Both the position numbers and the translations under genes were made by a program. The notes under the pieces were generated by a model, which saw only the letters and a list, made by a program, of their open reading frames with translations, was not told where the DNA came from and did not search any database. A DNA stretch of 64,000 bases from Alistipes sp. (GTDB taxonomy: Bacteria > Bacteroidota > Bacteroidia > Bacteroidales > Rikenellaceae), in the NCBI GenBank assembly GCA_045124955.1, contig JBGVMU010000003.1, forward strand, positions 85,247-149,246. Reading direction: 5' to 3'. Below are positions 1-17,243 of the stretch, in pieces (position 1 is the first letter of the stretch; every line of letters starts with the position of its first letter).

Positions 1-915
1 GTAGCGACCATCCACACTCTCGATATATACGATACGCTGTGTGCCGGTGTAGTCGATACGCTGTGTGGTGATTGGAACATTTGGAGCTGCATTTCCCGAC
101 TGCGAGTCGCTGATGATGTAACCCTCGATACAGATATCCTCGGTGATATCACGCTCGCCCTTTTGACGCATCTCGGCAAACGAAACGATGTCGTCTGCAA
201 TGCTTATCTCCTTATCTTGTGTCACCAAGATGTCGGTCATAATGGTCTCGTTCCAATCGTCGGTATAGGAGAAGCGGATTGTCGCCTTACGCATACTCTT
301 GGCATTCGGGTTTGGCTCGACATCGAATTTAAGGGTGTTATTCACGCAAGTAATGTTCGAAATCCAATCCACCTTGTCGAAGATATCCTTGTCGAAGATA
401 TCAATCTGCAACTCATCGAACTCGATGCTACTTTTGAGCAGTGTAGAGAGCTGACCACCCTGGTAGCCGGCAAGCATTGCACGCTTCGACACTTCGAGGG
501 TGCTCGATTTGCGGCCCTTCTGCTTGATGAATACGGTGTCAATACGGTTCTCGGCTTCGAGTGTGATGAGTGCCATACGGCGCACACCATCGTTGCGATC
601 CACCATAGTGAAGATTGTGCCGTCGCCATTTAACGATAGGCCGGAGTAGGAGGCATCGGCCTTACTCTCGCCAATGCGTACCCAATCTGCACCCTTGGCA
701 ACCTTCGCAGTATAGGGTTGCGAGGCATATACTCCAAACTCCTTGATACCGCCCGTATACTCAACCGAGATGGTGTTGGTGTTGTTGGTATCACCCTCGA
801 TGTAGGCACCCAACTCGGGCGAAGGAACATAGTCCGCCTCATCTATCTGGCACGACACGAATAGAAGTGTCGTAGCCGAGAGTAATATAGTGAGAAATCC
901 TTTAATCTTGTTCAT
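1..915 (-). CDS. BACON + DUF5689-like surface lipoprotein, 3'-truncated by the window edge (absent from the ORF track)
   Basis: Hand translation from ATG at 915 is open to base 1: MNKIKGFLTILLSATTLLFVSCQID (lipobox Cys), two BACON-like segments (RRMALITLEAENRIDTVFIKQKG; MRKATIRFSYTDDW), then IEGYIISDSQSGNAAPN...IDYTGTQRIVYIESVDGRY, similar to the neighbouring gene. Confidence 0.85.
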   Translation of the reverse strand, partial: MNKIKGFLTILLSATTLLFVSCQIDEADYVPSPELGAYIEGDTNNTNTISVEYTGGIKEFGVYASQPYTAKVAKGADWVRIGESKADASYSGLSLNGDGTIFTMVDRNDGVRRMALITLEAENRIDTVFIKQKGRKSSTLEVSKRAMLAGYQGGQLSTLLKSSIEFDELQIDIFDKDIFDKVDWISNITCVNNTLKFDVEPNPNAKSMRKATIRFSYTDDWNETIMTDILVTQDKEISIADDIVSFAEMRQKGERDITEDICIEGYIISDSQSGNAAPNVPITTQRIDYTGTQRIVYIESVDGRY

Positions 916-930
916 AACAGATATTTTCGA

Positions 931-3090
931 TTACTTGTTATACTTGATTGTGATGGCTGCCAGATAGAGTGGCACAACCTTGCTTGCCGAGAAACTTCCA
1001 CCTTCCGGATGGGTTTTCGTAGCACAACGCAAGGTGTGAGGTACTATGCGGAGGTATGCCTTCTCGGCACCACAAATCTCTGCCGGCAGACGGAATGAGC
1101 GTTGCGCCAATCCGTGAGTACCGAACTTTATGCAGTCCGAAAGCCACCAAGCTGCAGGGTGGATGTCGAACTCCGAATTCTCGACTACGGTGTAGCTCTG
1201 GCCGTCGAGCGAATACTCGATGCGCCAATTAGCAGGGAAGTTCAGACCTGCTCCATTGGTAGACTGACCGCCTGCCCAATATGCGAGGTTGATAGATGCT
1301 CCTGCGCCAAGCGATGTGGCTGGGAACTCCACAACCAAGCCCTTGAAATCGCCTTTGTCGTCTACCCAAGAGGCATTGTAGCAACAAGCAGTCTTACGGG
1401 TCGTTACTTTTGCATCTGTTCCGGATATGAGCGTATTGAAGCAGGTGTTGATGGCAGGCACGGTGCCCAACTCGTGATAGAGCTTGCCTTCGCCATACTT
1501 TGGCACTACCTTATTCTCGGCATCGAGTGTTACCGCTTCGTCCAACCAATGCCACTCGACATAGGTCTTCGAGAAGTTGTCCTCCTCCGATGCGTTAAAC
1601 TGCAAGCAACTCTCGTCGTAAGGACGAATCACGAACTTGCCGAGCGAGCCACTGACATTGTTCTCCTCGCCGCTGTTATCGCCATACATAGGGGATGTCT
1701 CGTAGGTGAGGATACCCTTAACATTGCCCTTGCCGAGCGGTGCCTCTTGACCCTTGCGTACCCATTCGAGGGCCTGCTTGTGGGTGAACATCATATAGAT
1801 GGTGTTACCCTCGCTGTCACGAAGAAGTGTAGGATAGTAGTCGCAGTAGTAGCGATAACCATCGGTGGTGTTGTATAACGCACCCTTGTTGTAGACAAGC
1901 TCCACATCCTTGATTGTGACGATGCGGTAGTAGTCATCCGAGGTGAGCTCCGAGAGTTTGCGCTCACGAACAGGAACATCTCCCTCGGCGCCGGTTATGA
2001 GTGACACAACATTGCGAGAACGCACATTCGAGAGTTCGTAACGACCCTCGCCGAGCTTTGTGAGGGTGCAACCATCAATACGAATTTGGGCCGATGCATA
2101 CTGTGGAATGATGTTATCCTTACCTGTGAGCATCGAGACCTTCAATGAGTACTTCATATCGTGGCTGACGATGTATGTAGTGCCGTCGTTGATGTTTGTG
2201 TCGGTGGCAGAGAAGCTCGAACCCGACCAAGCGCTCTGTTTGTTCATCGCTGCGTTGGTGTTCTCGGGGAAAGAGAGGTTGATGCCACTAATCTTGATGC
2301 CGTTTATCTCCTCCTCGTTGGCGGCAATAGTCCAGCTATTTGTACCACTCTCGGTTGTGGCGGTGGTAAAGCGCTCGAAGAGCTCCTCCCAAGTAATCTC
2401 AACCGATGATGTTGTACCCTGAGTGATGTTCACATACGAAGGACCATATACAGCCTTCGTATAAGGGTCTGTGAAGGTTATACCCAAGCGTGCCGAACGC
2501 TCTGCCTCGGTATCGTTGAGTGCAACATCGAGAGCTAACTGCTCGCCCTGCATTCTAATGTTGCTAATCCAATTTTTGCTCTCGCCGAGATACTCCACCT
2601 CGTCGAGTATGATGTGCTTGTAGAGGTCGTTCGAGATGTTCGAGTCGAGAGCCAAGTAGTAGGTAGTTGCACTATTCTCGATGATCATCTCTCCATCCTC
2701 GGCACGGAAGCGGAATATGATATCCTTACCATCCTGAACAACCATTATGCGCTTGGTTGCGTTGCCACTATGCACAAGGATGTAGGCACGACGAATGGCA
2801 TCGTTGTTGGCCTTGTAGGTGAAGAGCATTCGTCCCGAACCGTTGCCCTGGGCATTGGTCAGGGTTGCCCAGTCGTAGTCGTCTTCGAGCTCTGCTGTCC
2901 AAGCCGAGTCGGAATAGACCGAAATGGGTGTTGAGCCCTCTTCGACTTTGAGCTTAATGCAGTTGGTCTCCGAGTCGTCGTTGTTTACACCGAAGCCCTC
3001 CCACTCGAAGTCCTTGTTGCACGACGGCACAAGCATTGCCAAAGCAACGACTGCCAAAATATATTTAATCATCTGTTTCATAACTTTCAT
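931..3090 (-). CDS. BACON + DUF5689-like surface lipoprotein (719 aa)
   Basis: Lipobox MLVPSC, BACON-like repeats (WTAELEDDYDWATL...RRAYILV), OB-like middle region (YRIVTIKDVEL, LLRDSEGN); directly downstream of susD. Confidence 0.75.
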   Translation of the reverse strand: MKVMKQMIKYILAVVALAMLVPSCNKDFEWEGFGVNNDDSETNCIKLKVEEGSTPISVYSDSAWTAELEDDYDWATLTNAQGNGSGRMLFTYKANNDAIRRAYILVHSGNATKRIMVVQDGKDIIFRFRAEDGEMIIENSATTYYLALDSNISNDLYKHIILDEVEYLGESKNWISNIRMQGEQLALDVALNDTEAERSARLGITFTDPYTKAVYGPSYVNITQGTTSSVEITWEELFERFTTATTESGTNSWTIAANEEEINGIKISGINLSFPENTNAAMNKQSAWSGSSFSATDTNINDGTTYIVSHDMKYSLKVSMLTGKDNIIPQYASAQIRIDGCTLTKLGEGRYELSNVRSRNVVSLITGAEGDVPVRERKLSELTSDDYYRIVTIKDVELVYNKGALYNTTDGYRYYCDYYPTLLRDSEGNTIYMMFTHKQALEWVRKGQEAPLGKGNVKGILTYETSPMYGDNSGEENNVSGSLGKFVIRPYDESCLQFNASEEDNFSKTYVEWHWLDEAVTLDAENKVVPKYGEGKLYHELGTVPAINTCFNTLISGTDAKVTTRKTACCYNASWVDDKGDFKGLVVEFPATSLGAGASINLAYWAGGQSTNGAGLNFPANWRIEYSLDGQSYTVVENSEFDIHPAAWWLSDCIKFGTHGLAQRSFRLPAEICGAEKAYLRIVPHTLRCATKTHPEGGSFSASKVVPLYLAAITIKYNK

Positions 3091-3102
3091 CTCAATTTTG
3101 CA

Positions 3103-4809
3103 TTACATACCGTACTTCTTGTACTCGTCGTTGGTGAGAACGCCACCCGAGAGGGCTACCTCCTTATCAGGAATAGGGTAGTACTCGTGACAAGGCAACA
3201 TATTGTTCTTCATTGTGCCATAATCCGAACAGTTCGATACCTGCTCGAACCATATGCCCCAACGAACCAACTCGAATTTACGCTGGAACTCACCTACAAG
3301 CTCTCGTCCGTGCTCCTTCTGAATCTCGTTCATCAGAGCAAGCTTGCTCTTGAAGTTCGCCTGGTTCAGGTCGCCCAAGCCGGCACGACGGCGCACCTTG
3401 TTCAGGTACTCGACAGCCTTGGTACGGTCGCCCAATTCGAGGTGGCACTCTGCTGCCATAATCAATGCTCCTGCATAGCGGAACACCTTCAAGTTATTTC
3501 CGTCGGCAGTAGATTGAATGTTCGGACACCAGAACTTATCTCCCATCCAAGGGCGAGATTGAGGGGTAAATTTAGTACCTCGTGGATTACCTCCCGATGC
3601 ATTCCAAAAGAATTGCCACTCCTTCTCTCCCTCATCGTTGTAGGTTTCGTATCCCCACGCCATATTTATCTTGGAGCGGTGGTCGAATACTCCGTTGATA
3701 AAGTCGGGATCATCAGCCGAGAGTTTGTCATACTCGGTGTATGGCTGCAACTGCTGGTAGAAGTATTGGTTAGGGCGGTACGCCGTATAGGTACGGGCGT
3801 TGTCGCCAATCAAATCGATTTTCAAACCGCTATACCAAATCTCAGGCTCTTTGCCTACAGGTACTTGGTCTTCGGGTTGCACGGCTCTGGTCGGCATAAA
3901 GAAGCAGGCAATCTGGCTGGTAACCTTCAAACCATCCTCGTCGTAGATGTTTGCCACCTCGAAGATAGACTCCTTGGTGTATTTGTTGCGGAAGCAGATG
4001 TCCGAGATAGGGTATTGCTTCAAGTCGCCATAGATAGCTTCGAGGTGCTCGATAGCCGTAAGAGCCTTCTTAAACCACATCTCACTATTTGGCGTATCCT
4101 TCGAGCCATTCCACATAGCCAACTTTGCGCAAACCATCCAGCCGAATGCTGCACCCATACGGTAGTCACGCTTCTCGGGGTTGTCGTAGGTGCGCTCCTG
4201 TACTACACCATCCTTAACGAGGAGGTCGAGCAACTCATCCACGATGTAGCCACGAGTCTCGATGGCCGACATACGAGGGAGTTTTGCAACTCGATCCTGA
4301 TCCTCTACGGTTTCGACAGGGTAGGTGTAGAACGGAACATCGCCGAATATGGAGGTGAGCAGATAGTAGTACATACCACGCAATGCCGCCGCCTCGGCCA
4401 TCAACTCGTTGTACTCGGTAGTCGATAGGTTGCCGTCGTTGTAGGCACGCTTCAATGCGGCGATGATGTTGTTGCAACGCATCACGCCACGATAGCCTTG
4501 GGTCCAACCTGTGCTACCATAACGAGGGTTGGCAGGCGAGATGTCGAGCTGCGCATCGAGTGTTCCCGACTGACAATAGAGAAGATCCGAAACCGACTCG
4601 GTGGCCAAGAGGAATGGGCCGTTATACATCGAGCGGAATGGAGGGTAGCAACCACGAAGACCCGTAACGCACTGCGAATAGTTCTTGTAGTAGGTTGCTG
4701 TCTGATAGTTCGACTGCATATTCTCCTCCAAAGAGCAGGCGGAGAGGAACATTGCCGATACGATGGCAATGATAGCAGAAGCGAATGTATATAGTTTTCT
4801 GTTTTTCAT
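3103..4809 (-). CDS. susD: RagB/SusD family outer-membrane lipoprotein
   Basis: Lipobox FLSAC; EAAALRGMYYYLLTSIFGDVPF, FRYAGALIMAAEC, EHGRELVGEFQRKFELVRWG motifs; follows susC. Confidence 0.95.
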   Translation of the reverse strand: MKNRKLYTFASAIIAIVSAMFLSACSLEENMQSNYQTATYYKNYSQCVTGLRGCYPPFRSMYNGPFLLATESVSDLLYCQSGTLDAQLDISPANPRYGSTGWTQGYRGVMRCNNIIAALKRAYNDGNLSTTEYNELMAEAAALRGMYYYLLTSIFGDVPFYTYPVETVEDQDRVAKLPRMSAIETRGYIVDELLDLLVKDGVVQERTYDNPEKRDYRMGAAFGWMVCAKLAMWNGSKDTPNSEMWFKKALTAIEHLEAIYGDLKQYPISDICFRNKYTKESIFEVANIYDEDGLKVTSQIACFFMPTRAVQPEDQVPVGKEPEIWYSGLKIDLIGDNARTYTAYRPNQYFYQQLQPYTEYDKLSADDPDFINGVFDHRSKINMAWGYETYNDEGEKEWQFFWNASGGNPRGTKFTPQSRPWMGDKFWCPNIQSTADGNNLKVFRYAGALIMAAECHLELGDRTKAVEYLNKVRRRAGLGDLNQANFKSKLALMNEIQKEHGRELVGEFQRKFELVRWGIWFEQVSNCSDYGTMKNNMLPCHEYYPIPDKEVALSGGVLTNDEYKKYGM

Positions 4810-4830
4810 CTTATGTGCATCTTTTGAGGG

Positions 4831-7800
4831 TTAGTAACGAATTTGAACACTGAATATGATGGTGCGAGCCTTCGGATAAGCACCATTATCCATACGACGA
4901 ATGGTCGAGCCGCTGGAATTTGTCGATACATCAGGGTCGTAGCCGTTGTAGTTCTTCCACAAGAAGAGGTTCTCGCCACTTGCGCTGACGGTGATGTCAC
5001 GCAGGTGCTTGGTCTTCTTGCGAAGGTCGAAGGTGTAACCCAAGGAGATGTTCTTCAAACGGATGTACGAAGCATCGTAGACCATACTCGAACTTGGCAA
5101 TTCGTCACTGCGATATGCGCCAGGGATGTTCGACTCAGGATTTCGTACCGGATGCCAAGCATCGAGCATATAGCGATATTGGTTGGTGTAGGAGCTACCC
5201 TTCATCCACAACTCCGAGAGATTGTAGATCTTACCTCCGAGCGAGTAGTTGAAATAGACGCTCAAACGGAACTTTCCGATGTGGAAGGTGTTCTGCAAAC
5301 CTCCGTAGAGGATAGGGTCTGCCGAACCGAGATATACGAGGTCATCCTCGTTGAGTGCTCCGTCGTGGTTGGTATCCACATAGTAGGCATAACCAGGCTT
5401 GTAGCGGCTCGAACTACTCGATACGTAGGCCTTTGTCTCGGTGTTGCGGTTAATCTGATCCTGAGTGTGCCATACGCCAGCCTGCTGGAAGCCCCACAAT
5501 GCATTGAGTGGATAGCCATTGACATATCCGTACATCATATAGGAGTTGTTTGTAGGCGAAGAGTAGGCTGCGATATAGTCGCTCGAACCTGTGTCGAGTA
5601 CCAATTGCGAGTTGTGCGCAATGGTGAAGGTTGTATCCCAACTAAACTTCTTGCGTGTGATGTTGTGCGAGGTGATGCTGAACTCTACACCCTTATTCTC
5701 GGTTGCACCAATATTGGTGTAGCGAGAGTCGAAACCGGTGCTTGTAGGGAGCTTCACCGAGAGCAACAAGTCGGTAGTGAGGGAGTAGTAAGCCTCCAAC
5801 GAGAACTCCAATCGCTTATCCAATACCGAGAAGTCGATACCTGCGTTATACATAGTGGTCTTCTCCCAAGTCAAATCCTTGCTCTCCAAGCGAGAAGGAT
5901 AGACCGCCAACGGCTGGTTATAGCCGAAGAGGTAACCACTTGTGCTGCTCGACAACGCCTCCATCGAACGATAGTACGAGATAGCATCGTTACCCGAAAC
6001 ACCCGCACTGAGTCGCAACGAGAGGTCGTCTAACCAATTCACCTGCTTCATAAACGGCTCCTTCGAAATCATCCACTTGAATGCTCCCGACGGGAAGAAG
6101 GCGTATTTGTTGTTGGCGGCAAAGTTCGACGAGCCATCGACACGAGCCGTAAAGGTGAAGTAGTAGCGCTTCTTGTAGTTGTAGTTGAAACGGCCAAGCA
6201 CCGAATTACGGGTACGCTCGTTGAACGAAGATGCCGGCGAGAGGTTATTCTTATCGGGAATAGCCTCCATATTGTTCCACTTGATATCGTCGCTCAAATA
6301 GCCCGTACCCTTCAACGAGAAGTTGTGCTGTTGGAACTTCTCCACGGTGAAGCCAACCATCAAATCCAAGTTGTGCAGACGGCGGATAGTGCGCTTATAG
6401 CTCAGCGTATTTTCGTTGGTGAGTCGATACTCGTCGGTCTCGGCACGATAGGCCACAGCACCCTGGTTGATAGCCTCGTAGGTCGGACGAGTCGATGGGT
6501 AGAACTCGTAGGTGTGACGCTGGAACACATAGTAGTTGAAACGAGAACGGAATGTCAAGCCCTTTGCCAAGTTGATAGTGATATTTGGCGAGAGGGTAAA
6601 CATCTTTCGTGTAGTCTCGTTGGTAATGAGGTGTGCGTCCAAGTATGGCGAGTTGTATGGCTGACCACCATCGAAACCTGTACCCCAGAGGATATTCACG
6701 GTGTCGGTAGGCGACTGCATAGGGTTGAGGAAGATGGCTCCATTCCAATAGTTAACGCCACCCACAGCAACCTTGTTGTTGTCGTTCATACGGTACTCGT
6801 AGTTCATATTGATGCCCAAGCGCAACCACTTGAAGAGCTGATACTGCGCATTCAGACGACCTGTCAAACGCTCCATACCCGAGCAGATGATGATACCGTC
6901 ATTCTTGTGGTAGCCAAACGAGGTGAAGTAGTTGTACTTCTTCGATCCGCCCGAAACGCTCAAATTGTAGTTCTGGTACATACCCGTGCGAGTGATGACA
7001 TCCTGCCAATCGGTACCCTTGCCATAGGCATTAGGGTCGAGGTACTTGTAGTCACTCTCCGGCTTTGTGCCAGGGCCTCCCGAGTTGTTGAGGTGCACAT
7101 CGTTGCGGTATTGAGCAAACTCCGATGCGTTCATCACATCGAGCTTGCGAGGCAACTGCGAGAATCCGAGGTCGGTCTTGAAGGTGATACGAGGCTTCGA
7201 GCCCGAGTCGGAACCACCCTTTGTGGTCACGATGATTACACCATTAGCACCTCTTGCTCCGTAGATAGCGGTCGACGAGGCATCCTTCAATACCGAGATA
7301 GACTTGATATCCGAAGGGTTGAGGTCGCCCAAGTCCGATACACCGTCCATCACGCCATCCACCACGATGAGTGGCTCGTTCGAGGCGGTGATTGAGCGAG
7401 TACCACGAATACGAATTGAGGTCGAAGCGCCAGGCTCACCTGTTGTCGACATAATATCGGCACCTGCAACACGACCCTGCAACGCCTGGTCGATTGACGA
7501 AACGGGAGCGTCGGCAATCTCCGACATCTTAACCGTAGAAACCGAGCCTGTCAAGTCGCTCTTCGCCACCGAGCCATAACCGATAACCACAACCTCATCC
7601 ACCTTGACATTGTCCTGCGCAAGGGCGATGTTGATGGTGGTGCGAGAGTTGATTTTAACCTTTTGCGAAGTGTAACCGAGGTACTGCACCTCCAACACTC
7701 CGTTTGCAGGCACTTGGAGGGTATATTTACCCTGCAAGTCTGAGGATGTTCCGATGGTTGTTCCCTCAACCGATACGGCAGCACCTACGAGTGCCTGCTT

Positions 7801-7944
7801 GTTCGAGGCGTCCGTAATCGTTCCGCTGACGGTAATCTTCTTATCCTGCGCCAATGCCGATGCCGGAAGGAGCAGTGTCGCCGCCATAAACATCAGGGCA
7901 ACGAAGCGTGCGGAGCCTGTGATATGTTTGAATATATGTTTCAT
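4831..7944 (-). CDS. susC: SusC/RagA TonB-dependent outer-membrane transporter
   Basis: CarboxypepD-like N-terminus, plug motifs IRIRGTRS and DIKSISVLKDASSTAIYGARGANGVIIVTTK, LTWEKT, YIRLKNISLGY, YPKART. Confidence 0.97.
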   Translation of the reverse strand: MKHIFKHITGSARFVALMFMAATLLLPASALAQDKKITVSGTITDASNKQALVGAAVSVEGTTIGTSSDLQGKYTLQVPANGVLEVQYLGYTSQKVKINSRTTINIALAQDNVKVDEVVVIGYGSVAKSDLTGSVSTVKMSEIADAPVSSIDQALQGRVAGADIMSTTGEPGASTSIRIRGTRSITASNEPLIVVDGVMDGVSDLGDLNPSDIKSISVLKDASSTAIYGARGANGVIIVTTKGGSDSGSKPRITFKTDLGFSQLPRKLDVMNASEFAQYRNDVHLNNSGGPGTKPESDYKYLDPNAYGKGTDWQDVITRTGMYQNYNLSVSGGSKKYNYFTSFGYHKNDGIIICSGMERLTGRLNAQYQLFKWLRLGINMNYEYRMNDNNKVAVGGVNYWNGAIFLNPMQSPTDTVNILWGTGFDGGQPYNSPYLDAHLITNETTRKMFTLSPNITINLAKGLTFRSRFNYYVFQRHTYEFYPSTRPTYEAINQGAVAYRAETDEYRLTNENTLSYKRTIRRLHNLDLMVGFTVEKFQQHNFSLKGTGYLSDDIKWNNMEAIPDKNNLSPASSFNERTRNSVLGRFNYNYKKRYYFTFTARVDGSSNFAANNKYAFFPSGAFKWMISKEPFMKQVNWLDDLSLRLSAGVSGNDAISYYRSMEALSSSTSGYLFGYNQPLAVYPSRLESKDLTWEKTTMYNAGIDFSVLDKRLEFSLEAYYSLTTDLLLSVKLPTSTGFDSRYTNIGATENKGVEFSITSHNITRKKFSWDTTFTIAHNSQLVLDTGSSDYIAAYSSPTNNSYMMYGYVNGYPLNALWGFQQAGVWHTQDQINRNTETKAYVSSSSSRYKPGYAYYVDTNHDGALNEDDLVYLGSADPILYGGLQNTFHIGKFRLSVYFNYSLGGKIYNLSELWMKGSSYTNQYRYMLDAWHPVRNPESNIPGAYRSDELPSSSMVYDASYIRLKNISLGYTFDLRKKTKHLRDITVSASGENLFLWKNYNGYDPDVSTNSSGSTIRRMDNGAYPKARTIIFSVQIRY

Positions 7945-7966
7945 AATCTCTTGCTATTTCGAAACC

Positions 7967-8950
7967 TTACTCATAGATGTTGAACTCGGCCAATACAGGG
8001 TAGTGATCCGAATACTTCCAAACACCCGAGCCATTGTTGATTGCCACACCATTTGGCGAGTACATAATCTTCTCCATATGGGCAAAGCCATAGAGGAAGT
8101 CGATGGATTTGAGAGACTTACGCATTGACTCTGTGCCGAAGATGTAGTCGATATACGACTTGGTGTAGTTGTTCATCTCTGCCCACAAATCGTAGTAGGA
8201 GTTCTTGCGCACCTCACGGTCAACATCGTCGCCCGAGCCATCGTTGAAGTCGCCCATCATCAACCAATTCTGCTCGGTGTAGTGAGCCTCCGAGTTGATG
8301 GTCTCGGCCATATAGAAATTCACCTCGTTCATACGAATGGTGTTTGCGTTGTTCACATTCGATGGTTGCAAGTGCAGATTTACCAAATTGACAACATAGC
8401 TATCCGAGAAGTGAACCTTGGCGTGAACAGCACCGTGCGAAACCTTCACCTGGCTGTTGCCACGCAAGCGTGAAACGAGCTCGATAGGGTACTTCGAGGT
8501 AATAACCACAGGGTAGTTGTCGAGGTATGGGCCCATAACCACATATTTGTGTCCCCAGCGCTCTGCCAACTCGACCCAGCCCGCAGGATTATCCCACTTC
8601 GCCTCTTTATCCTTCTGGTCGGCATAAGGGAGGTAGCGACCATAGTGTGAGAGGTTCTTGCCGTCGACATCCCAGTGGGTTGCCGCCTCCTGAATGCAGA
8701 ATACATCGGGATTAATCTCGTTGATGTAGGCTACGAAGTTGTTGTAGTTGTTGAATTGGTCACACCACATTCCATCCTGAATATTCCAACTGAGGAGTTT
8801 GAACGAGCCGTTGAATACTGCCGACTCGGACTCCACTGCAAGAGGTGTGTCGCCCGACACCTGCTTTGTTCCGCAGGATGCGAGCACAAGCGTAGCAACC
8901 ATCGCACAGATGATAGCTACTATGTTCTTAAATTTAGAATTCGTCATCAT
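7967..8950 (-). CDS. Endonuclease/exonuclease/phosphatase (EEP) family lipoprotein
   Basis: Start reassigned to ATG 8950 (MMTNSKFKNIVAIICAMVATLVLASC, lipobox), overlapping the upstream stop by 17 nt. Full motif set present: SWNIQDG, IQE, NLHL, GDFND, IDYIF, SDHYPV. Confidence 0.9.
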   Translation of the reverse strand: MMTNSKFKNIVAIICAMVATLVLASCGTKQVSGDTPLAVESESAVFNGSFKLLSWNIQDGMWCDQFNNYNNFVAYINEINPDVFCIQEAATHWDVDGKNLSHYGRYLPYADQKDKEAKWDNPAGWVELAERWGHKYVVMGPYLDNYPVVITSKYPIELVSRLRGNSQVKVSHGAVHAKVHFSDSYVVNLVNLHLQPSNVNNANTIRMNEVNFYMAETINSEAHYTEQNWLMMGDFNDGSGDDVDREVRKNSYYDLWAEMNNYTKSYIDYIFGTESMRKSLKSIDFLYGFAHMEKIMYSPNGVAINNGSGVWKYSDHYPVLAEFNIYE

Positions 8951-9653
8951 CTTCGCCAGGTTTAATAGGTTCAAACATCTCTGGAACGACCGGCTTTGCC
9001 ACCTGCAAAATCTCCGCCGTGGAGGTGAAGGTGTCGCCCCACGCATCGGTATAAGCGATTGTGGCGGTAGCCTTGCGGTCTGTATCCTCGCTCTCGTTCT
9101 TGCTGTGAGCAATCACGATTTCGGTTCCATTTGTACTGATTCGATGGCTTGTAATCCATTCGCAATCGCCCGTGATGGAGTACTCGATGTCGCCAGCCTC
9201 GTAGATCGAGAGGTTGGTGTTTATGGTCAAGACATTCTCCTCCGAGTTGTGGGTGAATACAAACTGCTTCTCACGGAACTCCAACTTCGGAGTGATACCG
9301 CTCTGGCGGAAGTAGATTGTCACCGAGGTGAATTGGTCGGCCGTGATGACGGTGAATACCGCCTGACGACGCAAGCCTCGACGCACACCATCGAACTTAT
9401 TCTCCTTGTACTTAACCGAGAATGCGCCGATGCCATCTCCGTGGTCAGGGCCTACGAATTCGCACCACTCCTTCGATGCCTCATCCATCGTTACGCTCCA
9501 CTTTCCCGTAGTAGTCACGCCGAACGAGTGAATACCCTCGTCGGCAGTAACAACGACAATCTGGTCGCTATTTTGTGTTATAATCTCCTCCTCTTGGCAG
9601 CCACACGCCACAATAAGCAGTGTGGCAAGGAGCAATTTCATCATCTTTTTCAT
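8934..9653 (-). CDS. BACON-domain lipoprotein (two domains)
   Basis: Lipobox IVACGC; KWSVTMDEASKEWC, RQAVFTV and WITS...DRKATATI BACON-like patterns; acidic C-terminus FEPIKPGEDDDEF. Confidence 0.8.
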   Translation of the reverse strand: MKKMMKLLLATLLIVACGCQEEEIITQNSDQIVVVTADEGIHSFGVTTTGKWSVTMDEASKEWCEFVGPDHGDGIGAFSVKYKENKFDGVRRGLRRQAVFTVITADQFTSVTIYFRQSGITPKLEFREKQFVFTHNSEENVLTINTNLSIYEAGDIEYSITGDCEWITSHRISTNGTEIVIAHSKNESEDTDRKATATIAYTDAWGDTFTSTAEILQVAKPVVPEMFEPIKPGEDDDEF

Positions 9654-9665
9654 ATTACGCTCCTC

Positions 9666-12600: not shown

Positions 12601-13052
12601 CCGTCGGTGGATTTTGCCACATAGAGGTTGTTGTGCTGCTCGAATTGAGCAACGAGGTCGGCATTGTAGTTTTGGGTATCGGGCAAGGTGAGCGAGATCT
12701 TCGAACCTTCGGCCGTAACATCCTTATCGTAAGGGTAGTAGGCGTAGATGTCGCCCTTGACCTCTGCTCCGTAGAAGAGTCCTTCGGCAGCTCCGTCGTA
12801 GGAGTTGAAGAGCGAATATTTGGCATTCTCGCCACCCTCTTTGCCGAATACTCCGATGTGGGTTAATGTGTTCCAGGTGTGGGATGTTTCGCTCTCCAAC
12901 AGAGCCTCCGCAGTCGTGATTTTCAGCTGCGAGGTTGTGGCTGTGAGCGTTGTACGACCATTGGTTGGCACTTCGTCCACACCATTGTCGGGTGTGACAC
13001 ACCCCGAAAGAGATAGAACCACACAAAGTATCGTGAAGTAAAATCTTTTCAT
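9666..13052 (-). CDS. Fimbrillin/type V pilin-like lipoprotein with three tandem pilin modules and a FISUMP/C-type-lectin-like head (1128 aa)
   Basis: Lipobox LSGC; three repeats of W...IGVF/WSEGDQLSIY, LAGR/LAGV and LP-A--Y-D motifs; head motifs ANCF, WAWHLW, YDRNLGA, YQWGRPSPF, DPCPYGY, GVRCIKK. Confidence 0.8.
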   Translation of the reverse strand: MKRFYFTILCVVLSLSGCVTPDNGVDEVPTNGRTTLTATTSQLKITTAEALLESETSHTWNTLTHIGVFGKEGGENAKYSLFNSYDGAAEGLFYGAEVKGDIYAYYPYDKDVTAEGSKISLTLPDTQNYNADLVAQFEQHNNLYVAKSTDGVVDFGYLYGSLAIQVKGNFTVRSITLSSSSQPLAGRIAFDFENDMEASAVARSLYSLTVDCGEGVVATDEAPALIHALLPSATYTDLAITVKTDKGEISKKLNGAYTVKRVTSLQCGEAMSSGTIVADFESLTLGELVEATPRTWAKDATIGVFSEDSKNTLYTIESSSVGKAEAQFVGATASGDIVAYYPYNAQTSLSEGKLTISTDSKQTYNPSLLSQFIENTPLMVAKAATGEKLSFEYVMGVLAVNVKANLKIRHIEVSSSKPLAGRLVFDTANDYLCSEAESGAKQIITLDASAELPEASLDAPKMFYISLPAGEYDDLAVTVTADNGETLTATVAEKVIIKRMNLATIAEDITYQTIDIVLEDVEYGKVAWSEGDQLSIYNEARGKGIVSTILGAAGSKRNRVVAVGTPNEPFNVAYPASAVKSLGTKATITFPESQLYTEEAVAKESQIYVGRSKEGVAQLNLLTSILAIEVVANYDCQIWGIDITSKSKPLAGVADVDMSYEEEPTVLFTSAKNNIRLVMESPVAISNGANQVFYVAIPAATYDAEELSIAVDGTLGATIKSVAALTTERAVCSETAISTIKCTNLTEGGKYANCFVMPNKKGWYMFDAKIKGGYDNDEDGTAVISKNAIAGTLFELNKGMISNVHTCNNSQSVSFYYDGSEGNASIVTIENGMVLWAWHLWCPGAGQPKDVVLGANTYYDRNLGALKVPTSKAEMEAMTDADFLASGGMLYQWGRPSPFPYAINYTAEAWANRLGQSGENTPTYYYPSADLITVGGAGGAGGAIPVSVMKRFTSSITQAFWETNASATKSPLFIGCQTNNTTQRHWNKIWSMDPSHEKASWNYSDEKHKQYDPCPYGYELPLTATIVEDLKALNTATPPTAHLAAEGNCKGGYYIEREGEFLWHAVSGLRQYYGLWTTVNSPNANIAGATTNDSKQLFIYWGKGAGARTVNTGSWAPVTAMGVRCIKK

Positions 13053-13175
13053 ACGAGTTAGTCTTTACTATATATATAATATAGGTATGGTTGGTTTTGT
13101 AGGTTGCTCTTGTTGGGTGCAGAGCCTTTGGGGCGGAGCACCTCGTCGAGCTTGCGACATAGTCGCAATGGGTAT

Positions 13176-13208
13176 AAAGACGGGGCGGGCGATCCTACGC
13201 CCCGTCTT
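13176..13208 (-). terminator. Stem-loop between the two fimbrillin-like genes (probable terminator/attenuator)
   Basis: AAGACGGG(GCGG)GCG...CGCCCGTCTT hairpin 15 nt after the stop at 13224; only a short T tail on the minus strand. A second perfect hairpin TTGCGAC-ATA-GTCGCAA lies at 13152-13168. Confidence 0.55.
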
Positions 13209-13223
13209 GAAAATCGTAGTATA

Positions 13224-15458
13224 TTAGAACTTACCTCTACGGCAACGAACATTGTAACCCTGAGCGTTTACAGTCTTACTTGCGTTTGGGTTGAGAAGAC
13301 CTGGTGCAGTATAGTTACTACCAACCTCACCGAATGCCATTGCACCACCATTACCAATGGTATAAGTCTTACCGCCATTTGCAACGGTGTAAGTATTGGT
13401 ATTGTTGGTGTTTACAACATAGATGTAACCGCAGTTAGAATACTGACCCGCAACACCTGTAATACCTGATGTTCTGTTACCTGCGCAAGGCCAATACATA
13501 GGAACAGCGTTATCATCCTTATCCTTGCAGCCATTGTAATACATACCATAGAACTTGTAGCCCGACTTGTAGGTAGCATCATCCTCGGCAGCACGAGCAT
13601 AGCCAAACTTAGCCTTCACGGCATCGCTTGTGGTAGCATACCAATAGAGGATAGAGTAGTTCTCCATAATATATCCCGGAGGGCACGGATCGTGAGCAGT
13701 CTTGTACTTCATCATCTCATCGTGGTTGTTATCGTTGATACTATTCCAAAGACGATAATTACCCTCTGAAACAACCACACTTATTGGTGAAGTTTTGCCT
13801 TGCTGGTTAATAATGTTTGACAAGTTCCAAGTATCCTTATTACCCTCATATGCTCGGTACTCGTAGTTTGGCAAGGTGATACCATTGTGAACATAGAGTG
13901 TCTGACCCTCCTCGGTAAATGTAGACTCGAAGATATTTGCCGCGCTTTGCGATGTTGCCCAATACTGGCTATACTGCGAGAAACCATACGCTACATCGCA
14001 ACGAGTGTTGTGGAGAGTTTCAATCTTCTCCTTAGTCTTGTCGCCCAAGCTCTTAATACGAGGGAGTGGATTGCAACTCTGATACTGGAAATAGACACCA
14101 CAAGCGTCGTTTGCGTTCTCCAAGGCAATTGTGTTGTTGAATGCCACATTCTGACTTGAAAGAGTCAAGGTAGAGGTTGTCTGGATATCAGAAGTAGGAG
14201 TCCAAGTAGCACCTATAACACGGTCCATCATGTAGTAAGCAACGTTCGCATTCTTACCCGAACCCATAATCTTCAAGGTCTTAGGTGCATCGGTAATCCA
14301 AATGTGCCAGTGCCAAATAATAGCATTATTAGCCTGACCACCATTGGTGAGTACAACCAAAGCATTACCCTTCTTACCGTTGGTCTTGAACGAAATCTTG
14401 TTGGTTGCTGGGTCGTAGTGCAAGTCGTAAACCATACCAGCCTCCTCAGCCCACTTAATCTCGGCAGTAACACCGCCCTTGAGAACAGCGCCGTCAGCCA
14501 AGATACAAGGGAACTCATACGAACCTGCTGTTGGAGGAACCATATAGCAACGAGCGTAGTCCTCGTATGCCTTGCCTGTTGTACCTGCCAACGAAACAGG
14601 GTTTGCAGGAGTATGAGCAGCCAAATTGATGTGAGATGCGCTAATAGGCTTGATAGCCGAACGAGTTACGGTGTGAGGCTTGGTTGCATAAACTGCTTGC
14701 GAGCCCTTGTCGGTGATGAATACAAGACCCATATTCTCGTACTCGCCCTCAGGCAATGCGATATAGAGCTCCTCGCCATTTGTGATATCCAATCCCTCCT
14801 TGTAGGTATACTTCAAGTAAGAGAAAGCAGCATTGTTGGTAGCCATTGCTACATTGCCATCCTTGCCAACCTCCTTCGAGAGGTTGAGAGTCGCCAACTG
14901 TGCGATTGGGTGGAACTCCGATGATGTACGGCAGGTTGAACGAACGATAACGCTCTGCAACTTACCCTCTCCCTTTACAGGAACCTTGATGTAGCCGAGC
15001 AAGTTCTTGAATGTGATGTACTCACCCTCAACAACGCCCTTCATAGGGTTCTGGTCGAAGATTGCCTCAGCGCTTGCAAGGTTTGTTACATTGTAAGGCA
15101 AGTTGAACTTTGCTGTTGTGCCGTCGAGAGTTGGCCTGTTCGACATATAGATGATATATGCAGTGTTCGACGGAATAGCTATGGTGCTATTGGTGTGATC
15201 TACGGTGTAGGTGTTTGCGTCGAGCGCAAGTGCGCCACCCTCGCCTTGGAGAACAGCATAAACCTTGTCGCCCTCGCTCCAAGCGAGCTTTCCGCTAACA
15301 TCGTCACGGTCGAGACGGGTATCCTCGAAGACGAGGTTCTTAACTACGAGCTCTCCTGCCTCGATACCGCCATTGTTTACTACATCATTTGTAAAATCTT
15401 TGGTACAGCCTGCAAACATTAGTGCCACGGCTGAAATTGCTAATAAAATCTTTTTCAT
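13224..15458 (-). CDS. Fimbrillin/type V pilin-like lipoprotein with FISUMP-like head (744 aa)
   Basis: Lipobox FAGC, EDTR|L propeptide-like site, WSEGDKVY motif; head motifs ARCYMV, WHWHIW, MDRVIGA, HDPCPPGY, WPCAGNR, YNVRCRR. Confidence 0.82.
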   Translation of the reverse strand: MKKILLAISAVALMFAGCTKDFTNDVVNNGGIEAGELVVKNLVFEDTRLDRDDVSGKLAWSEGDKVYAVLQGEGGALALDANTYTVDHTNSTIAIPSNTAYIIYMSNRPTLDGTTAKFNLPYNVTNLASAEAIFDQNPMKGVVEGEYITFKNLLGYIKVPVKGEGKLQSVIVRSTCRTSSEFHPIAQLATLNLSKEVGKDGNVAMATNNAAFSYLKYTYKEGLDITNGEELYIALPEGEYENMGLVFITDKGSQAVYATKPHTVTRSAIKPISASHINLAAHTPANPVSLAGTTGKAYEDYARCYMVPPTAGSYEFPCILADGAVLKGGVTAEIKWAEEAGMVYDLHYDPATNKISFKTNGKKGNALVVLTNGGQANNAIIWHWHIWITDAPKTLKIMGSGKNANVAYYMMDRVIGATWTPTSDIQTTSTLTLSSQNVAFNNTIALENANDACGVYFQYQSCNPLPRIKSLGDKTKEKIETLHNTRCDVAYGFSQYSQYWATSQSAANIFESTFTEEGQTLYVHNGITLPNYEYRAYEGNKDTWNLSNIINQQGKTSPISVVVSEGNYRLWNSINDNNHDEMMKYKTAHDPCPPGYIMENYSILYWYATTSDAVKAKFGYARAAEDDATYKSGYKFYGMYYNGCKDKDDNAVPMYWPCAGNRTSGITGVAGQYSNCGYIYVVNTNNTNTYTVANGGKTYTIGNGGAMAFGEVGSNYTAPGLLNPNASKTVNAQGYNVRCRRGKF

Positions 15459-15479
15459 AGTCTTAATGTTTTTAGGTTG

Positions 15480-15626
15480 TTAGAATTCGTTGTCGGCATC
15501 TTTCTCCGGAATATCTTCGAATGAAGAGGAAGAGGAGAGGGCAAAACCCGACTCTACTTTGACGGTTAATGCGTCCAATGCGGGGGCATCGTAGCAACCA
15601 TCCGATAGTAAATGCTTTTTGTTCAT
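15480..15626 (-). CDS. 48-aa small acidic peptide at the head of the operon (below the ORF-track cutoff)
   Basis: MNKKHLLSDGCYDAPALDALTVKVESGFALSSSSSFEDIPEKDADNEF*. Its leader AACCTAAAACATT-ATG matches the AACCTAAAAACATT upstream of the next gene. Confidence 0.75.
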   Translation of the reverse strand: MNKKHLLSDGCYDAPALDALTVKVESGFALSSSSSFEDIPEKDADNEF

Positions 15627-15723
15627 AATGTTTTAGGTTTAATAAGTTAAAATTTGATATTTTGTTGTATTTAATTTCTTGTCCTTGTAATTGATTGATA
15701 GTCAAGTTATTAAAGCCGAAATA

Positions 15724-15842
15724 CCCCCCCCCCCGAAAAATTTTCGGGGAGGGCATTTCTCCTATTGTGTTATTTTCTAATTCAAAGTAAACGATTTTTT
15801 GCGAGATTTCCAAATTTTTTTTTGTTTTTTTTCGGGGGGGGG
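15724..15842. repeat. Inverted homopolymer repeats C11-GAAAAA ... TTTTTC-G9 flanking the promoter
   Basis: 15726-15740 CCCCCCCCCGAAAAA is the exact reverse complement of 15828-15842 TTTTTCGGGGGGGGG; 87 bp lie between them. Confidence 0.85.
15783..15814 (-). promoter_or_regulatory. Candidate housekeeping-type promoter for the 15.6-kb surface-protein operon
   Basis: On the minus strand TTTG-N20-TTACTTTG, one mismatch from the Bacteroidota -33 TTTG / -7 TAnnTTTG consensus. Confidence 0.5.
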
Positions 15843-15954
15843 ATTATTGGGGGTTACTGGGGTTACTGGGGGCGCTCACTCTGTTCGCTTGTCGGGGTGC
15901 GCTGAAAGTTTCTCCCATTAGTCCCATTGGTCTTATTAGTCCCATTGGTCCCAT
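15843..15954 (-). repeat. Scaffold repeat copy (AAACTTTCAGCGC anchor + cargo) followed by a 9-mer CCCATTRGT array
   Basis: The reverse complement of 15843-15911 starts AAACTTTCAGCGCACCCC, like 55226 and 63711; 9-mer array at 15914-15954. Confidence 0.7.
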
Positions 15955-16006
15955 CCAGCTCTCAACTTTTTCCCTCCGCAAAATGCAGATAATCCCAAAA
16001 AATTCG

Positions 16007-16014
16007 TATATTTG
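16007..16014 (+). promoter_or_regulatory. -7 promoter box TATATTTG for the PHP gene
   Basis: Exact TAnnTTTG match 29 nt upstream of ATG 16044. Confidence 0.65.
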
Positions 16015-16043
16015 TAATTCGAGAAACCAAATAAACTAACAAT

Positions 16044-17243
16044 ATGAAGAGAATTTTCCTATTTATGGTTGCCGCAATGGCAGGAGTTGCTGCTTCGGCG
16101 CAGTACTATGTAGATGAGGTAAATAAGGACATACTCCATATCCGCCAACCTCGCAACGAGAATCGCACCGAGTTTGTGGTGCCGAGCGTGGATGGTTACA
16201 CCGCATACAAGGCGGATCTTCACACTCATACCATCTTCTCGGATGGTCACTTCTCGATGGAGGCCCGTGTTCGTGAGGCGTGGATGAATGGTCTGGATGT
16301 TATGGCTGTTACCGAGCATCTCGAACATCGCCCACACGAGAAGAACCTCGTGAAGTATCTCAAAGGTTACACCAAGGGTGCCGAGGCGAAGAACTACGCC
16401 TTTGTTTCGAGAAACCGTCCTGCATCGGGAGCCGATATTATGGTCGATTTGAATGCCCCTGTCGAGATAGCACGCAAGGAGGCAGAGAAGTATGGTTTGG
16501 CTATCATTCCGGGTATAGAGATTACCCGCAAAGAGGGTGGCGAGTATAGCCACTTCAATGCCCTCTTCACCACGGACAACAACACCATCTATGCACCCGA
16601 GACTATGCAGTCGTTGCGCAATGCCAAGGCGCAGAATGCGTTGGTTATGCACAACCATCCGGGTTGGACTCACAAGGATATGAAGCCTACTGCGTTCGAG
16701 AAAGAGGTCTATAAGGCGGGCTTGCTCGATGGTATCGAGGTTATGAATACCGCAGAGTTCTATCCTCAGGCTATTACCCGTGCCGAGAAATATGGCCTTT
16801 TCCTCTCGTCGAACTCCGATATTCACTACGCATCGGAAGGCTCATATCGTAACTTTGGCGAGCAACGCAATATGACCATTATCTTTGCGAAGGATATGTC
16901 GTTGGCATCGTTGCGTGAGGCTCTCGAAGCACACCGCACAATCGCCTACTCGTATGGTACGGTTGTGGGTAGCGAGGAGTTGCTCCGCAAGCTCTTCTTG
17001 GCGTCGGTTTCGGTTCGCAAGTCGGGCTTGGACTACAAGGGCCGCACCCACTACATCCTCACCAACAACAGTTCGATAAGTTGGTTGCTCCGTCGTGAGA
17101 ACAATGACCTGGTGGAGTTGAAGGGTAACTCGTCGATTCTTGTTCGTTTGAGCAGTTCGAAATCGAATGTCTATACCGTGGTCAATGCGTGGTACGGCGA
17201 GGATAAGCACCTCGTGGTAGACCTCTTTGGCGAGAAGAAGTAG
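16044..17243 (+). CDS. Secreted PHP-domain (polymerase/histidinol phosphatase-like) phosphoesterase
   Basis: Signal peptide ending ASA|Q; metal motifs DLHTHTIFSDG, VTEH, GIEIT, HFNAL, HNHP, SNSDIH. Confidence 0.88.
   Translation: MKRIFLFMVAAMAGVAASAQYYVDEVNKDILHIRQPRNENRTEFVVPSVDGYTAYKADLHTHTIFSDGHFSMEARVREAWMNGLDVMAVTEHLEHRPHEKNLVKYLKGYTKGAEAKNYAFVSRNRPASGADIMVDLNAPVEIARKEAEKYGLAIIPGIEITRKEGGEYSHFNALFTTDNNTIYAPETMQSLRNAKAQNALVMHNHPGWTHKDMKPTAFEKEVYKAGLLDGIEVMNTAEFYPQAITRAEKYGLFLSSNSDIHYASEGSYRNFGEQRNMTIIFAKDMSLASLREALEAHRTIAYSYGTVVGSEELLRKLFLASVSVRKSGLDYKGRTHYILTNNSSISWLLRRENNDLVELKGNSSILVRLSSSKSNVYTVVNAWYGEDKHLVVDLFGEKK

Follow-up and report, generated by a model that had tools for sequence, protein, structure and literature searches.

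The left end of a 64,000-nucleotide stretch of an Alistipes sp. genome (GenBank assembly GCA_045124955.1, contig JBGVMU010000003.1; C3:85247-149246, hereafter the window) carries a conserved block of genes in which a SusC–SusD transporter pair, further binding lipoproteins and type V pilin-like lipoproteins are encoded together with phosphoester hydrolases, and in which no carbohydrate-active enzyme (CAZyme) is found. With a probability of roughly three in four, we take this block to encode an uptake system for a phosphodiester-linked polymer of some kind. Capture and import of nucleic acid or a similar phosphate-linked polymer is argued for by the make-up of the block, which resembles a polysaccharide utilisation locus (PUL) with only phosphodiester-cutting enzymes, binding proteins of the type associated with DNA uptake, and pilin-like stalks. 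Extracellular nucleic acid (DNA and/or RNA) is the most likely single substrate, at somewhat short of even odds, and the features that point to it are the DUF5689 domain of the binding proteins, a profile of the locus's endonuclease/exonuclease/phosphatase (EEP) family that lies nearest to DNA nucleases, the lack of CAZymes in this subgroup of loci, and the precedent of PusCD, a CAZyme-free SusCD-like pair found with phosphodiesterases.

The predicted order of events, with the locations and the binding and catalytic specificities that it presumes, would begin at the cell surface, where six lipoproteins would sit; of these, SusD and two large ones, D1 and D9, would bind the polymer. A 1128-aa lipoprotein, and perhaps a 744-aa one, would hold a head domain off the membrane on a stalk of pilin modules, giving either longer reach or a tether to the polymer source. 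A lipoprotein EEP would cut the polymer at the surface, SusC would import the oligomers, and an EEP paralogue secreted by a signal peptidase I (SPI)-type signal would, together with a metallo-β-lactamase (MBL)-fold hydrolase, reduce them to monomers in the periplasm.

Gut Bacteroidota are known for the harvest of glycans, and the ddb DNA-utilisation loci and phosphate-scavenging SusCD systems have been described only recently. The present locus shows a third architecture, in which a true SusCD pair is joined by DUF5689-type binders and by no enzymes other than phosphodiesterases, set within a much larger class; it is a variant on the established concept that Sus-like systems can take up non-glycans, and its broad class appears uncharacterised in the literature searched. 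The identity of the substrate would show how guts and rumens recycle abundant non-glycan polymers, be they nucleic acids or teichoic-acid-like wall polymers, and would assign a function to the DUF5689/BACON tandem lipoproteins.

Gene content and borders of the block

The block spans 21 kb and 12 proteins of a 2.1-Mb, 97%-complete genome, and its genes lie on the minus strand (Table 1). Genes were called from a listing of open reading frames (ORFs) with Pfam and NCBIfam, and the 20 kb left of the window were inspected in the same analysis. All genes named in a preliminary description of this DNA, made from the letters alone, are present in the order given there, and its expectation that the locus runs on past the left edge is borne out by the remainder of D9, the MBL-fold protein and a second EEP, which lie beyond base 1. 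The next gene is a convergent transketolase, followed by clpX/clpP and trigger factor, which puts the end of the locus 3.4 kb outside the window. No glycoside hydrolase (GH) or lyase, the presence of which would by that description have refuted its reading, stands left of the window; the space up to the convergent housekeeping gene is occupied by the two additional phosphoester-type hydrolases. Pfam and NCBIfam detected no CAZyme among the 12 proteins of the block or in the flanking genes out to the transketolase and a divergent PHP gene, and no hybrid two-component sensor (HTCS), SusR or extracytoplasmic function (ECF)/anti-sigma regulator within the block.

The original 381-aa call for the surface EEP was over-extended; a lipoprotein start (MMTNSKF...LASC) lies at 8950, not 9112, giving a protein of 327 aa that does not overlap the BACON gene. 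The 1128 gene is 12 bp from the next gene and 21 bp lie between susC and susD, compared with 171 bp between the 744 and 1128 genes. Lipoboxes occur on seven proteins (744-aa, 1128-aa, BACON_2, surface EEP, SusD, D1 and D9), and SPI-type signals on SusC, the MBL-fold protein, the second EEP and the PHP protein. Several of the lipoproteins have acidic residues directly behind the lipid cysteine (CQEEE, CSLEE, CQIDE), a pattern which has been used as a surface-export signal in the ddb work (PMC12478041).

Table 1. Positions of the features discussed, in window coordinates unless a contig (C) or locus (L) is given
Feature	Position	Strand	Description
Bacteroidota-type promoter-like pair	15783..15814	(-)	TTTG at 15814-15811, TTACTTTG at 15790-15783, one base short of TAnnTTTG
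5' leader, two predicted hairpins	15683..15755	(-)	C-rich/G-rich stem, then UUUAAUA...UACAAG
Small ORF, 48 aa	15626-15480	(-)	no signal peptide; acidic C-terminus ...DADNEF; no Pfam match
744-aa lipoprotein	15458-13224	(-)	no Pfam match; lipobox MFAGC
GC-rich hairpin between 744 and 1128 genes	13177..13208	(-)	AAGACGGGGCG...CGCCCCGTCTT, read from sequence
1128-aa lipoprotein	13052-9666	(-)	weak Mfa_like_1; lipobox LSGC
BACON_2 lipoprotein, 239 aa	9653-8934	(-)	Pfam BACON_2 28 bits, cut-off 25
Surface EEP phosphodiesterase (predicted), 327 aa	8950-7967	(-)	Pfam Exo_endo_phos E 3e-10; lipobox LASC
SusC TonB-dependent transporter	7944-4831	(-)	TIGR04056 861 bits; SusC signature 65 bits
SusD-family lipoprotein	4809-3103	(-)	SusD_RagB E 2e-32; SusD-like_3 E 2e-11; lipobox then CSLEEN
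D1, BACON + DUF5689-like lipoprotein (predicted surface), 719 aa	3090-931	(-)	BACON 29 bits, above cut-off
D9, BACON + DUF5689 lipoprotein (predicted surface), 769 aa	915-1	(-)	N-terminal 305 aa in window; gene end C3:83852
MBL-fold protein, 351 aa	left of base 1, after D9		SPI signal; HxHxDH intact
Second EEP, 311 aa	left of base 1, after MBL-fold protein		SPI signal
Divergent PHP/CehA-McbA-type metallohydrolase	16044-17243	(+)	signal peptide; Pfam PHP, NCBIfam CehA_McbA
Relatives of the small ORF	L014:1744-1890; L016:4027-4164; L033:9828-9923; L035 about 7450-7600		
Canonical ddb-like locus, same genome	C5:162259-170866		lipoprotein, Endonuclease_NS, Exo_endo_phos_3, TonB-dependent barrel, DUF5689 lipoprotein

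The phosphoester hydrolases

The reading of the enzymes as phosphoester hydrolase folds with intact metal motifs holds for both EEPs, the MBL-fold protein and the PHP protein. Each EEP has the full catalytic set (N, E, H, D-N, D, D-H), which is invariant in 25 homologues, and the two are paralogues (35% identity, E 1e-53), of which the lipoprotein is predicted to act at the surface and the one with the SPI signal in the periplasm. Single-sequence searches of the PDB gave no match for either EEP and only the non-significant 3kl7 (E 0.079) for the MBL-fold protein. A profile of the locus EEP family, on the other hand, has DNA-acting enzymes as its best PDB matches, these being LINE-1 endonuclease (1e-12), ExoIII/Mth212 (1e-10) and APE1 (1e-8 to 1e-5), compared to 2e-6 for sphingomyelinase C, so that the best nuclease matches are about a million-fold better. 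The corresponding MBL-fold profile has among its weak PDB matches 1wra, an MBL-fold teichoic acid phosphorylcholine esterase, at a non-significant E of 0.09. On an EEP tree, the two enzymes of the locus group in clades of their own, which do not nest within those of CAZyme-bearing loci and do not separate clearly from them either. Neither this tree nor the MBL profile nor isoelectric points discriminate between substrates.

The divergent PHP protein, which matches PDB 3e38 with an E of 3.5e-51, had been counted as a member of the locus. This assignment did not survive comparison with relatives, in which GcvP, an MFS transporter or other genes occupy the spot; L014, L016 and L035 have no PHP gene there, and none was beside the block in any relative seen, and the PHP matches beside Bacteroides loci of the wider class reach just 19 bits.

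Binding proteins and the closest known systems

At full length, D9 scores above both Pfam cut-offs, with 52.4 bits for DUF5689 (cut-off 28.6) and 29.8 bits for BACON, and its lipobox is followed by CQIDEAD. D1 is a paralogue of D9 (E 9e-25) with a DUF5689 score of 23.6 bits, below the cut-off, and orthologues of D1 at 57-63% identity carry precomputed PF18942. A D9 profile found no match in the PDB. The BACON_2 lipoprotein is homologous to the N-terminal region of D9 (E 3.5e-6), has relatives at 61-65% identity and carries CGCQEEE, which is like a lipoprotein export signal. As D1, D9, SusD and true DdbD proteins are all acidic (pI 4.4-5.2), isoelectric points are uninformative on the binding of polyanions.

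The ddbABCDEF locus of Bacteroides thetaiotaomicron encodes secreted nucleases, the DdbC barrel and the DUF5689 lipoprotein DdbD, and serves DNA utilisation (Sharan et al., PNAS 2025, PMC12478041). DUF5689 is the domain of DdbD and of a Riemerella anatipestifer transformation protein, both of which are encoded in loci needed for DNA depletion or uptake, and its experimental link so far is to DNA-handling loci only (PMC12478041). It is this domain that ties the present block to the studied DNA-utilisation loci, a comparison which the preliminary description had already suggested. BACON-domain proteins also occur in some strain variants of ddb (PMC8851478). DdbD is predicted to dock on its barrel. 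Like ddb, the block combines lipoprotein enzymes predicted at the surface, an SPI-secreted enzyme predicted in the periplasm, and a TonB-dependent barrel, with DUF5689 lipoproteins nearby as possible counterparts of DdbD; its enzymes are solely of phosphodiester-cutting type, and their predicted split between surface and periplasm mirrors that of DdbA/F versus DdbB. Unlike ddb, it has a true SusC with a SusD partner, its DUF5689 domains lie within two BACON fusions of 720-770 aa placed after SusD rather than in a DdbD of 300-490 aa, its EEPs are generic PF03372 proteins accompanied by an MBL-fold enzyme rather than Endonuclease_NS (PF01223) or Exo_endo_phos_3 (PF19580), and it further encodes pilin-like stalk proteins and a leader ORF. 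Membership of ddb has been defined by more than 50% identity to one of four DdbC queries (PMC12478041); a BLASTP comparison of the window's SusC with the genome's own DdbC-like barrel gave nothing significant, the best E of 0.19 covering the N-terminal domain only.

The second point of comparison is the PUS/PusCD system of Flavobacterium johnsoniae, a CAZyme-free SusCD-like pair accompanied by phosphodiesterases or phosphomonoesterases (Lidbury et al., ISME J 2020, PMC8115612), for which nucleic acids and lipid head groups were proposed as substrates (PMC8115612). Here too, a SusCD pair is co-localised with phosphoesterases (two EEPs and an MBL-fold protein) in place of CAZymes. The PUS enzymes are, however, of Metallophos, PhoA and similar types, and neither DUF5689/BACON binders nor pilin-like proteins are reported there. 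PUS was moreover defined by induction under phosphate limitation, and for a gut anaerobe such as the present host phosphate is rarely limiting.

With canonical PULs the block shares adjacent susC and susD genes, extra binding lipoproteins in the SusE/F position, a predicted surface endo-enzyme with periplasmic finishers, and acidic residues resembling a lipoprotein export signal after the lipid cysteine. It differs from them in having no CAZyme; and where they would have an HTCS, SusR or ECF/anti-sigma regulator, it has a small ORF and a leader that may be structured. The closest known counterparts of the locus are thus ddb and PusCD, but it appears to belong to neither, its SusC being unrelated to DdbC and its nucleases being of other families.

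The pilin-like lipoproteins

The call of the 744-aa and 1128-aa lipoproteins as type V pilin-like proved correct at the level of fold. AlphaFold2 models built from homologue alignments (pLDDT 88.3 and 82.4, respectively) were searched against the PDB with Foldseek, and both match 3ufi, 3t2l and 3sy6 at probability 1.0, with TM-scores normalised to the target of 0.3-0.5. The 744-aa model comprises an N-terminal type V pilin-like module, a middle beta domain and a C-terminal globular head; its matches, which cover about 290 residues at probabilities of 0.77-1.00, further include 4rdb (1.0), Mfa4 5dhm (0.92-1.0) and Mfa3 5nf4 (0.77). The top specific matches of the 1128-aa model add 4h40 and 4dgu, also at 1.0, and BACOVA_04980, BF1858, BF1861 and PG0181 are among the proteins matched. 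Single-module matches of about 290 aa fall on three separate stretches of the 1128-aa protein, which thus consists of three tandem pilin-like modules and a head. Residues 55-473 of the 744-aa protein align by hhalign with residues 523-907 of the 1128-aa protein (probability 99.8), so that the last module, middle domain and start of the head of the latter are homologous to the former and the two proteins are paralogues.

Both proteins resemble type V pilins in being lipoprotein precursors with the two-domain FimA/Mfa fold. The 744-aa protein has a conserved arginine just past its first strand, a candidate cleavage site. This residue, R48, follows the strand at 37-44, precedes a low-confidence loop and is at least 90% conserved in 47 homologues, and its position is that at which pilins are cleaved, cleavage after an Arg/Lys there being what opens up their acceptor groove. 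No equivalent conserved arginine stands behind the first strand of the 1128-aa protein. Unlike true pilins, the modules are concatenated in one chain (three in the 1128-aa protein) and capped by a globular head of 270-340 aa, at residues 410-744 of the 744-aa protein and 860-1128 of the 1128-aa protein, in which the C-terminus of each model is buried, leaving no free C-terminal donor strand. The heads have no Pfam match, even at E up to 5. A FISUMP/C-type-lectin identity was considered for them and set aside, as the likeness is one of motif only (DPCPxGY...VRCxxK), Pfam finds nothing and whole-chain Foldseek results are dominated by the pilin modules.

Pfam and NCBIfam found no Mfa1/FimA-type stalk gene or Mfa2-type anchor gene in the block. 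The adhesive filament of the preliminary description is thus not upheld, given also the lack of the arginine site in the 1128-aa protein and the occurrence of 744-type genes on their own elsewhere. Read against the type V assembly model, the 744-type protein looks as a tip subunit would be expected to look, and the 1128-type protein resembles a pre-built stalk anchored in the membrane. The genome contains 21 Mfa_like_1 matches, among them a cluster of around ten fimbrillin-like genes at C17:27-62 kb and further matches at C5:28-33 kb and 226-231 kb, and these fimbrillin-like genes might supply the stalk or anchor to which a 744-type tip protein is joined. Pilin-module stalks bearing heads are a structural curiosity in their own right.

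Conservation of the block in relatives

The closest D9 match in a scan of named genomes comes from a sheep-colon Alistipes metagenome-assembled genome (MAG), at 97% protein identity, and the species is known only from ruminant-gut MAGs. The block had been presented as a unit, and as such it is co-conserved across species and genomic contexts, recurring in at least six flanking contexts in Alistipes MAGs with 1128-type proteins that are 33-97% identical. What recurs is an ORF of 45-48 aa, one or two 744-type genes, a 1128-type gene, a BACON lipoprotein of about 240 aa, EEP, SusC, SusD, D1, D9, MBL and EEP, the second EEP being usual but not universal. D1 homologues are few and all at least 55% identical, and their contigs carry the same block. 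The flanks vary on both sides: upstream lie GcvP or MFS genes, downstream PRK or a tRNA methyltransferase. Versions further removed (1128-type identity 33-52%) have one DUF5689 gene, lack the second EEP, or have a second 1128-type gene that replaces the 744-type.

The 1128-type gene always adjoins the uptake block, and by its conserved gene order the segment from the 1128 gene through MBL is a tight unit. Genes of 744-type that are about 41% identical also occur without the SusCD/EEP block, one of these together with the same leader hairpin and small ORF, and their copy number in relatives of the block ranges from two in L014 to none in L036. The small ORF and the 744 gene may accordingly form a semi-independent module.

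The wider SusC–SusD–DUF5689 class

A survey anchored on the D9 family, using named genomes with one genome per species, collected 79 loci from Alistipes, Bacteroides (including B. caecimuris), Dysgonomonas, Sphingobacterium, Desertivirga, Cryptobacteroides and unnamed Bacteroidales, the neighbours of which were classified by ORF calls, phmmer, clustering and Pfam. The order SusC–SusD–D1–D9 is kept in 66 of the 79, and most of the remainder are truncated where a contig stops. Of the 79, 61 have an EEP belonging to this family and 63 some phosphoesterase; in 34 there are CAZymes, sialidase-like proteins or carbohydrate esterases, and 37 have a phosphoesterase without any CAZyme, BNR protein or esterase. 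SusC–SusD with a tandem DUF5689 pair is thus a widespread core and apparently one undescribed in the literature searched. On the EEP tree, the GH label changes at least seven times, which indicates that decoration enzymes come and go on one scaffold. Some of the sister loci have FecR or DUF6377 proteins.

Gene fusions were seen among these loci. In Bacteroides sp. CAG:709 (L096:13132-17529), a single frame of 1465 aa directly after the SusC–SusD–D1–D9–EEP core encodes GH97 joined to a GDPD glycerophosphodiesterase and a GH13 alpha-amylase domain, a combination that would suit alpha-glucosylated poly(glycerol phosphate). A 622-aa fusion of BNR (a sialidase-like propeller) to EEP is found at L073:14696-16564 and also in L074, L085, L099, L105 and L109, loci which additionally hold GH43 and GLUG-motif proteins.

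The complete genome of Alistipes sp. i18-0019-D1 (L107) has 18 DUF5689 matches, mostly in proteins of 700-860 aa, from which some nine or more SusCD loci of the class can be expected in this single cultivable strain, a good experimental system. Other cultivable carriers of sister loci are Bacteroides caecimuris and Alistipes montrealensis kh20.

Weighing the substrate

The substrates named in the preliminary description, i.e. nucleic acids, phospholipid head groups and phosphodiester polymers such as teichoic acid, remain the right short list and can now be ranked, with no decision among them. A number of results weigh against the leading candidate, nucleic acid. The genome already holds a canonical ddb-like locus (Table 1), the barrel of which scores 1111 bits against the ddb barrel of Bacteroides caecimuris, so that a further system for DNA would in part duplicate it; a canonical ddb locus is likewise present in Bacteroides genomes that have sister loci. 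The D9 family aligns with DdbD-type proteins at an hhalign probability of just 22%, so that the D9–DdbD link exists at Pfam level only. The locus EEPs match only generic PF03372, whereas the proven ddb nucleases belong to PF19580 and PF01223, and the nearest solved relatives of the MBL-fold profile have unknown function. Sister loci that share the core and the EEP family come with GH97, the GH97-GDPD-GH13 fusion, GH3 with or without SGNH, GH20, GH43, GH5 and CE2, as well as BNR proteins and BNR-EEP fusions. The rule that DUF5689-type binders imply the absence of a glycan, implicit in the preliminary description, fails on these same-core loci with their GHs, GDPD and esterases. The 18 DUF5689 matches of one Alistipes strain are what would be expected of a diversified binder family, and together with the CAZymes of the sister loci and the ddb loci of Bacteroides carriers they mean that tandem DUF5689-type binders are not, by themselves, evidence for DNA. 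The heads, which look lectin-like, count on the same side.

These accessory enzymes would fit glycosylated, esterified phosphodiester polymers, e.g. teichoic acids, better than nucleic acid, and the main rival is accordingly a polyol- or sugar-phosphate polymer of the teichoic-acid type, or some other phosphoglycan, derived from the walls or capsules of Gram-positive cells, a candidate which we consider unlikely, though clearly the most serious of the other substrates. The EEPs would here cut backbone phosphodiesters, the MBL-fold enzyme would remove a phosphoester substituent or finish the oligomers, and lectin-like heads would tether the cell to wall debris; the CAZyme-free subgroup would take an undecorated backbone to which sister loci add decoration enzymes. 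Such a division agrees with the GDPD fused to GH97/GH13, the GH20, GH3 and SGNH/CE2 esterases expected for decorations, with an EEP retained in 61 of 79 loci while CAZymes appear in 34, with the repeated GH changes on the EEP tree, with the ddb-type DNA locus already in the genome and, at its non-significant E, with the 1wra match. BACON domains and lectin-like heads are, besides, typical glycan binders. On the other side, we know of no EEP-family teichoicase, the known teichoicases being GDPD (GlpQ) and PhoD enzymes, and this subgroup lacks GDPD; its EEP profile is nearer to DNA nucleases than to EEPs acting on lipids or sugar phosphates, and DUF5689 is tied experimentally only to DNA handling (PMC12478041). 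A broader form of the same idea, to which we give a still lower weight, is that the locus is the CAZyme-free end member of a class defined by SusC–SusD, tandem BACON-DUF5689 lipoproteins and a dedicated EEP family, a class which as a whole would harvest phosphodiester-linked envelope polymers (teichoic acids, phosphoglycans) of other microbes. If this were true, the GDPD, GH97/GH13, GH20/GH3 and esterases of sister loci would handle decorations, attachment to prey wall or debris would fall to the lectin proteins on pilin stalks, and the Sus paradigm would gain a new substrate class, with type V pilin modules newly used as built-in spacers.

An ordinary glycan PUL with unrecognised enzymes, located in the heads of the 744-aa and 1128-aa proteins or the C-terminal domains of D1 and D9, with EEP and MBL trimming phosphate-linked decorations, is improbable. 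Large parts of the four lipoproteins do lack a Pfam or PDB sequence match, and the D1/D9 core sits in many CAZyme-bearing loci, but no catalytic motif or hydrolase fold match was found in these heads and C-terminal domains, and three phosphoesterases against zero CAZymes in 14 related loci are hard to square with trimming only. The harvest of phospholipid or sphingolipid head groups, by EEPs that are sphingomyelinase- or phospholipase-C-like and a SusCD pair importing the phospho-head groups, is very improbable indeed: sphingomyelinase C is a significant match of the EEP profile, and lipid head groups are one substrate class that the PusCD authors proposed (PMC8115612), but the DNA-nuclease matches are six orders of magnitude better and small substrates would not need two large polymer-binding lipoproteins, SusD and stalked heads. 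A further reading concerns coupling and is compatible with either substrate hypothesis. It holds the hybrid to be partly a juxtaposition, in which the small ORF and 744-type gene are an autonomous adhesin module with its own promoter, leader and terminator, and the uptake operon begins at the 1128 gene; we regard this as a real possibility, held at rather less than even. The solitary 744-type genes and their variable copy number speak for it, as do the GC-rich hairpin and 171-bp gap between the 744 and 1128 genes compared with 12 bp after the latter, whereas the two proteins are paralogues, and of the five loci with a visible upstream flank, four (the window, L014, L016 and L035) have one or two 744-type genes directly upstream in the same orientation, their place being taken in the fifth, L036, by a second 1128-type gene.

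Promoter region, leader and small ORF

The promoter-like pair upstream of the block (Table 1) has a counterpart in the aligned relatives L016 and L033, which carry TACATTTG at this position. A scan for sigma-70 promoters and terminators showed no enrichment over shuffles, the method being unsuited to Bacteroidota. When three loci with 744-type genes about 41-60% identical are aligned, no other non-coding stretch is as well conserved as the leader, and RNAalifold predicts 27 pairs in it, two of them with compensatory change. With just three sequences used, the evidence for a conserved structured leader is suggestive only. Rfam gave no match on 1-17.5 kb. An invertible promoter was also considered and set aside as the less likely reading: a C9GA5/T5CG9 inverted repeat exists, with an extra C9GA8 tract upstream in the window completing an inverted repeat around the promoter, but relatives are without the upstream arm. 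What they conserve lies downstream of the promoter and is a local C/G hairpin rather than a flanking repeat, which makes leader structure the better reading. Between the 744 and 1128 genes, the GC-rich hairpin might act as a terminator or attenuator and set the 744 module apart.

The peptide which the preliminary description placed before the 744 gene exists in the form of the conserved 48-aa ORF, which gene prediction called, not of a 113-aa ORF at 15472-15813. An ORF of 45-48 aa without a signal peptide precedes every 744-type gene examined, and the window's version aligns at 40-43% identity with those of L014 and L016, sharing 14 invariant residues in the pattern M..KK.L...Y..P...V..E.GF...FE..E...F as well as an acidic C-terminus with EF as its last residues. 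The frame is broken by a stop codon in L033, yet conservation persists in the residues beyond it. The product is a candidate leader peptide, chaperone-like partner or regulator.

Elsewhere in the genome, two tandem small DUF5689 lipoproteins (255-259 aa) are encoded at C4:5306-6818 with no transporter gene beside them. Within the block, the small ORF and the BACON_2 lipoprotein both terminate in an acidic, D-rich motif followed by EF, DADNEF (15480-15500) and EDDDEF (8934-8951), and the acidic end is kept in two homologues of the BACON_2 lipoprotein (EDDDEF, QDDDDL).

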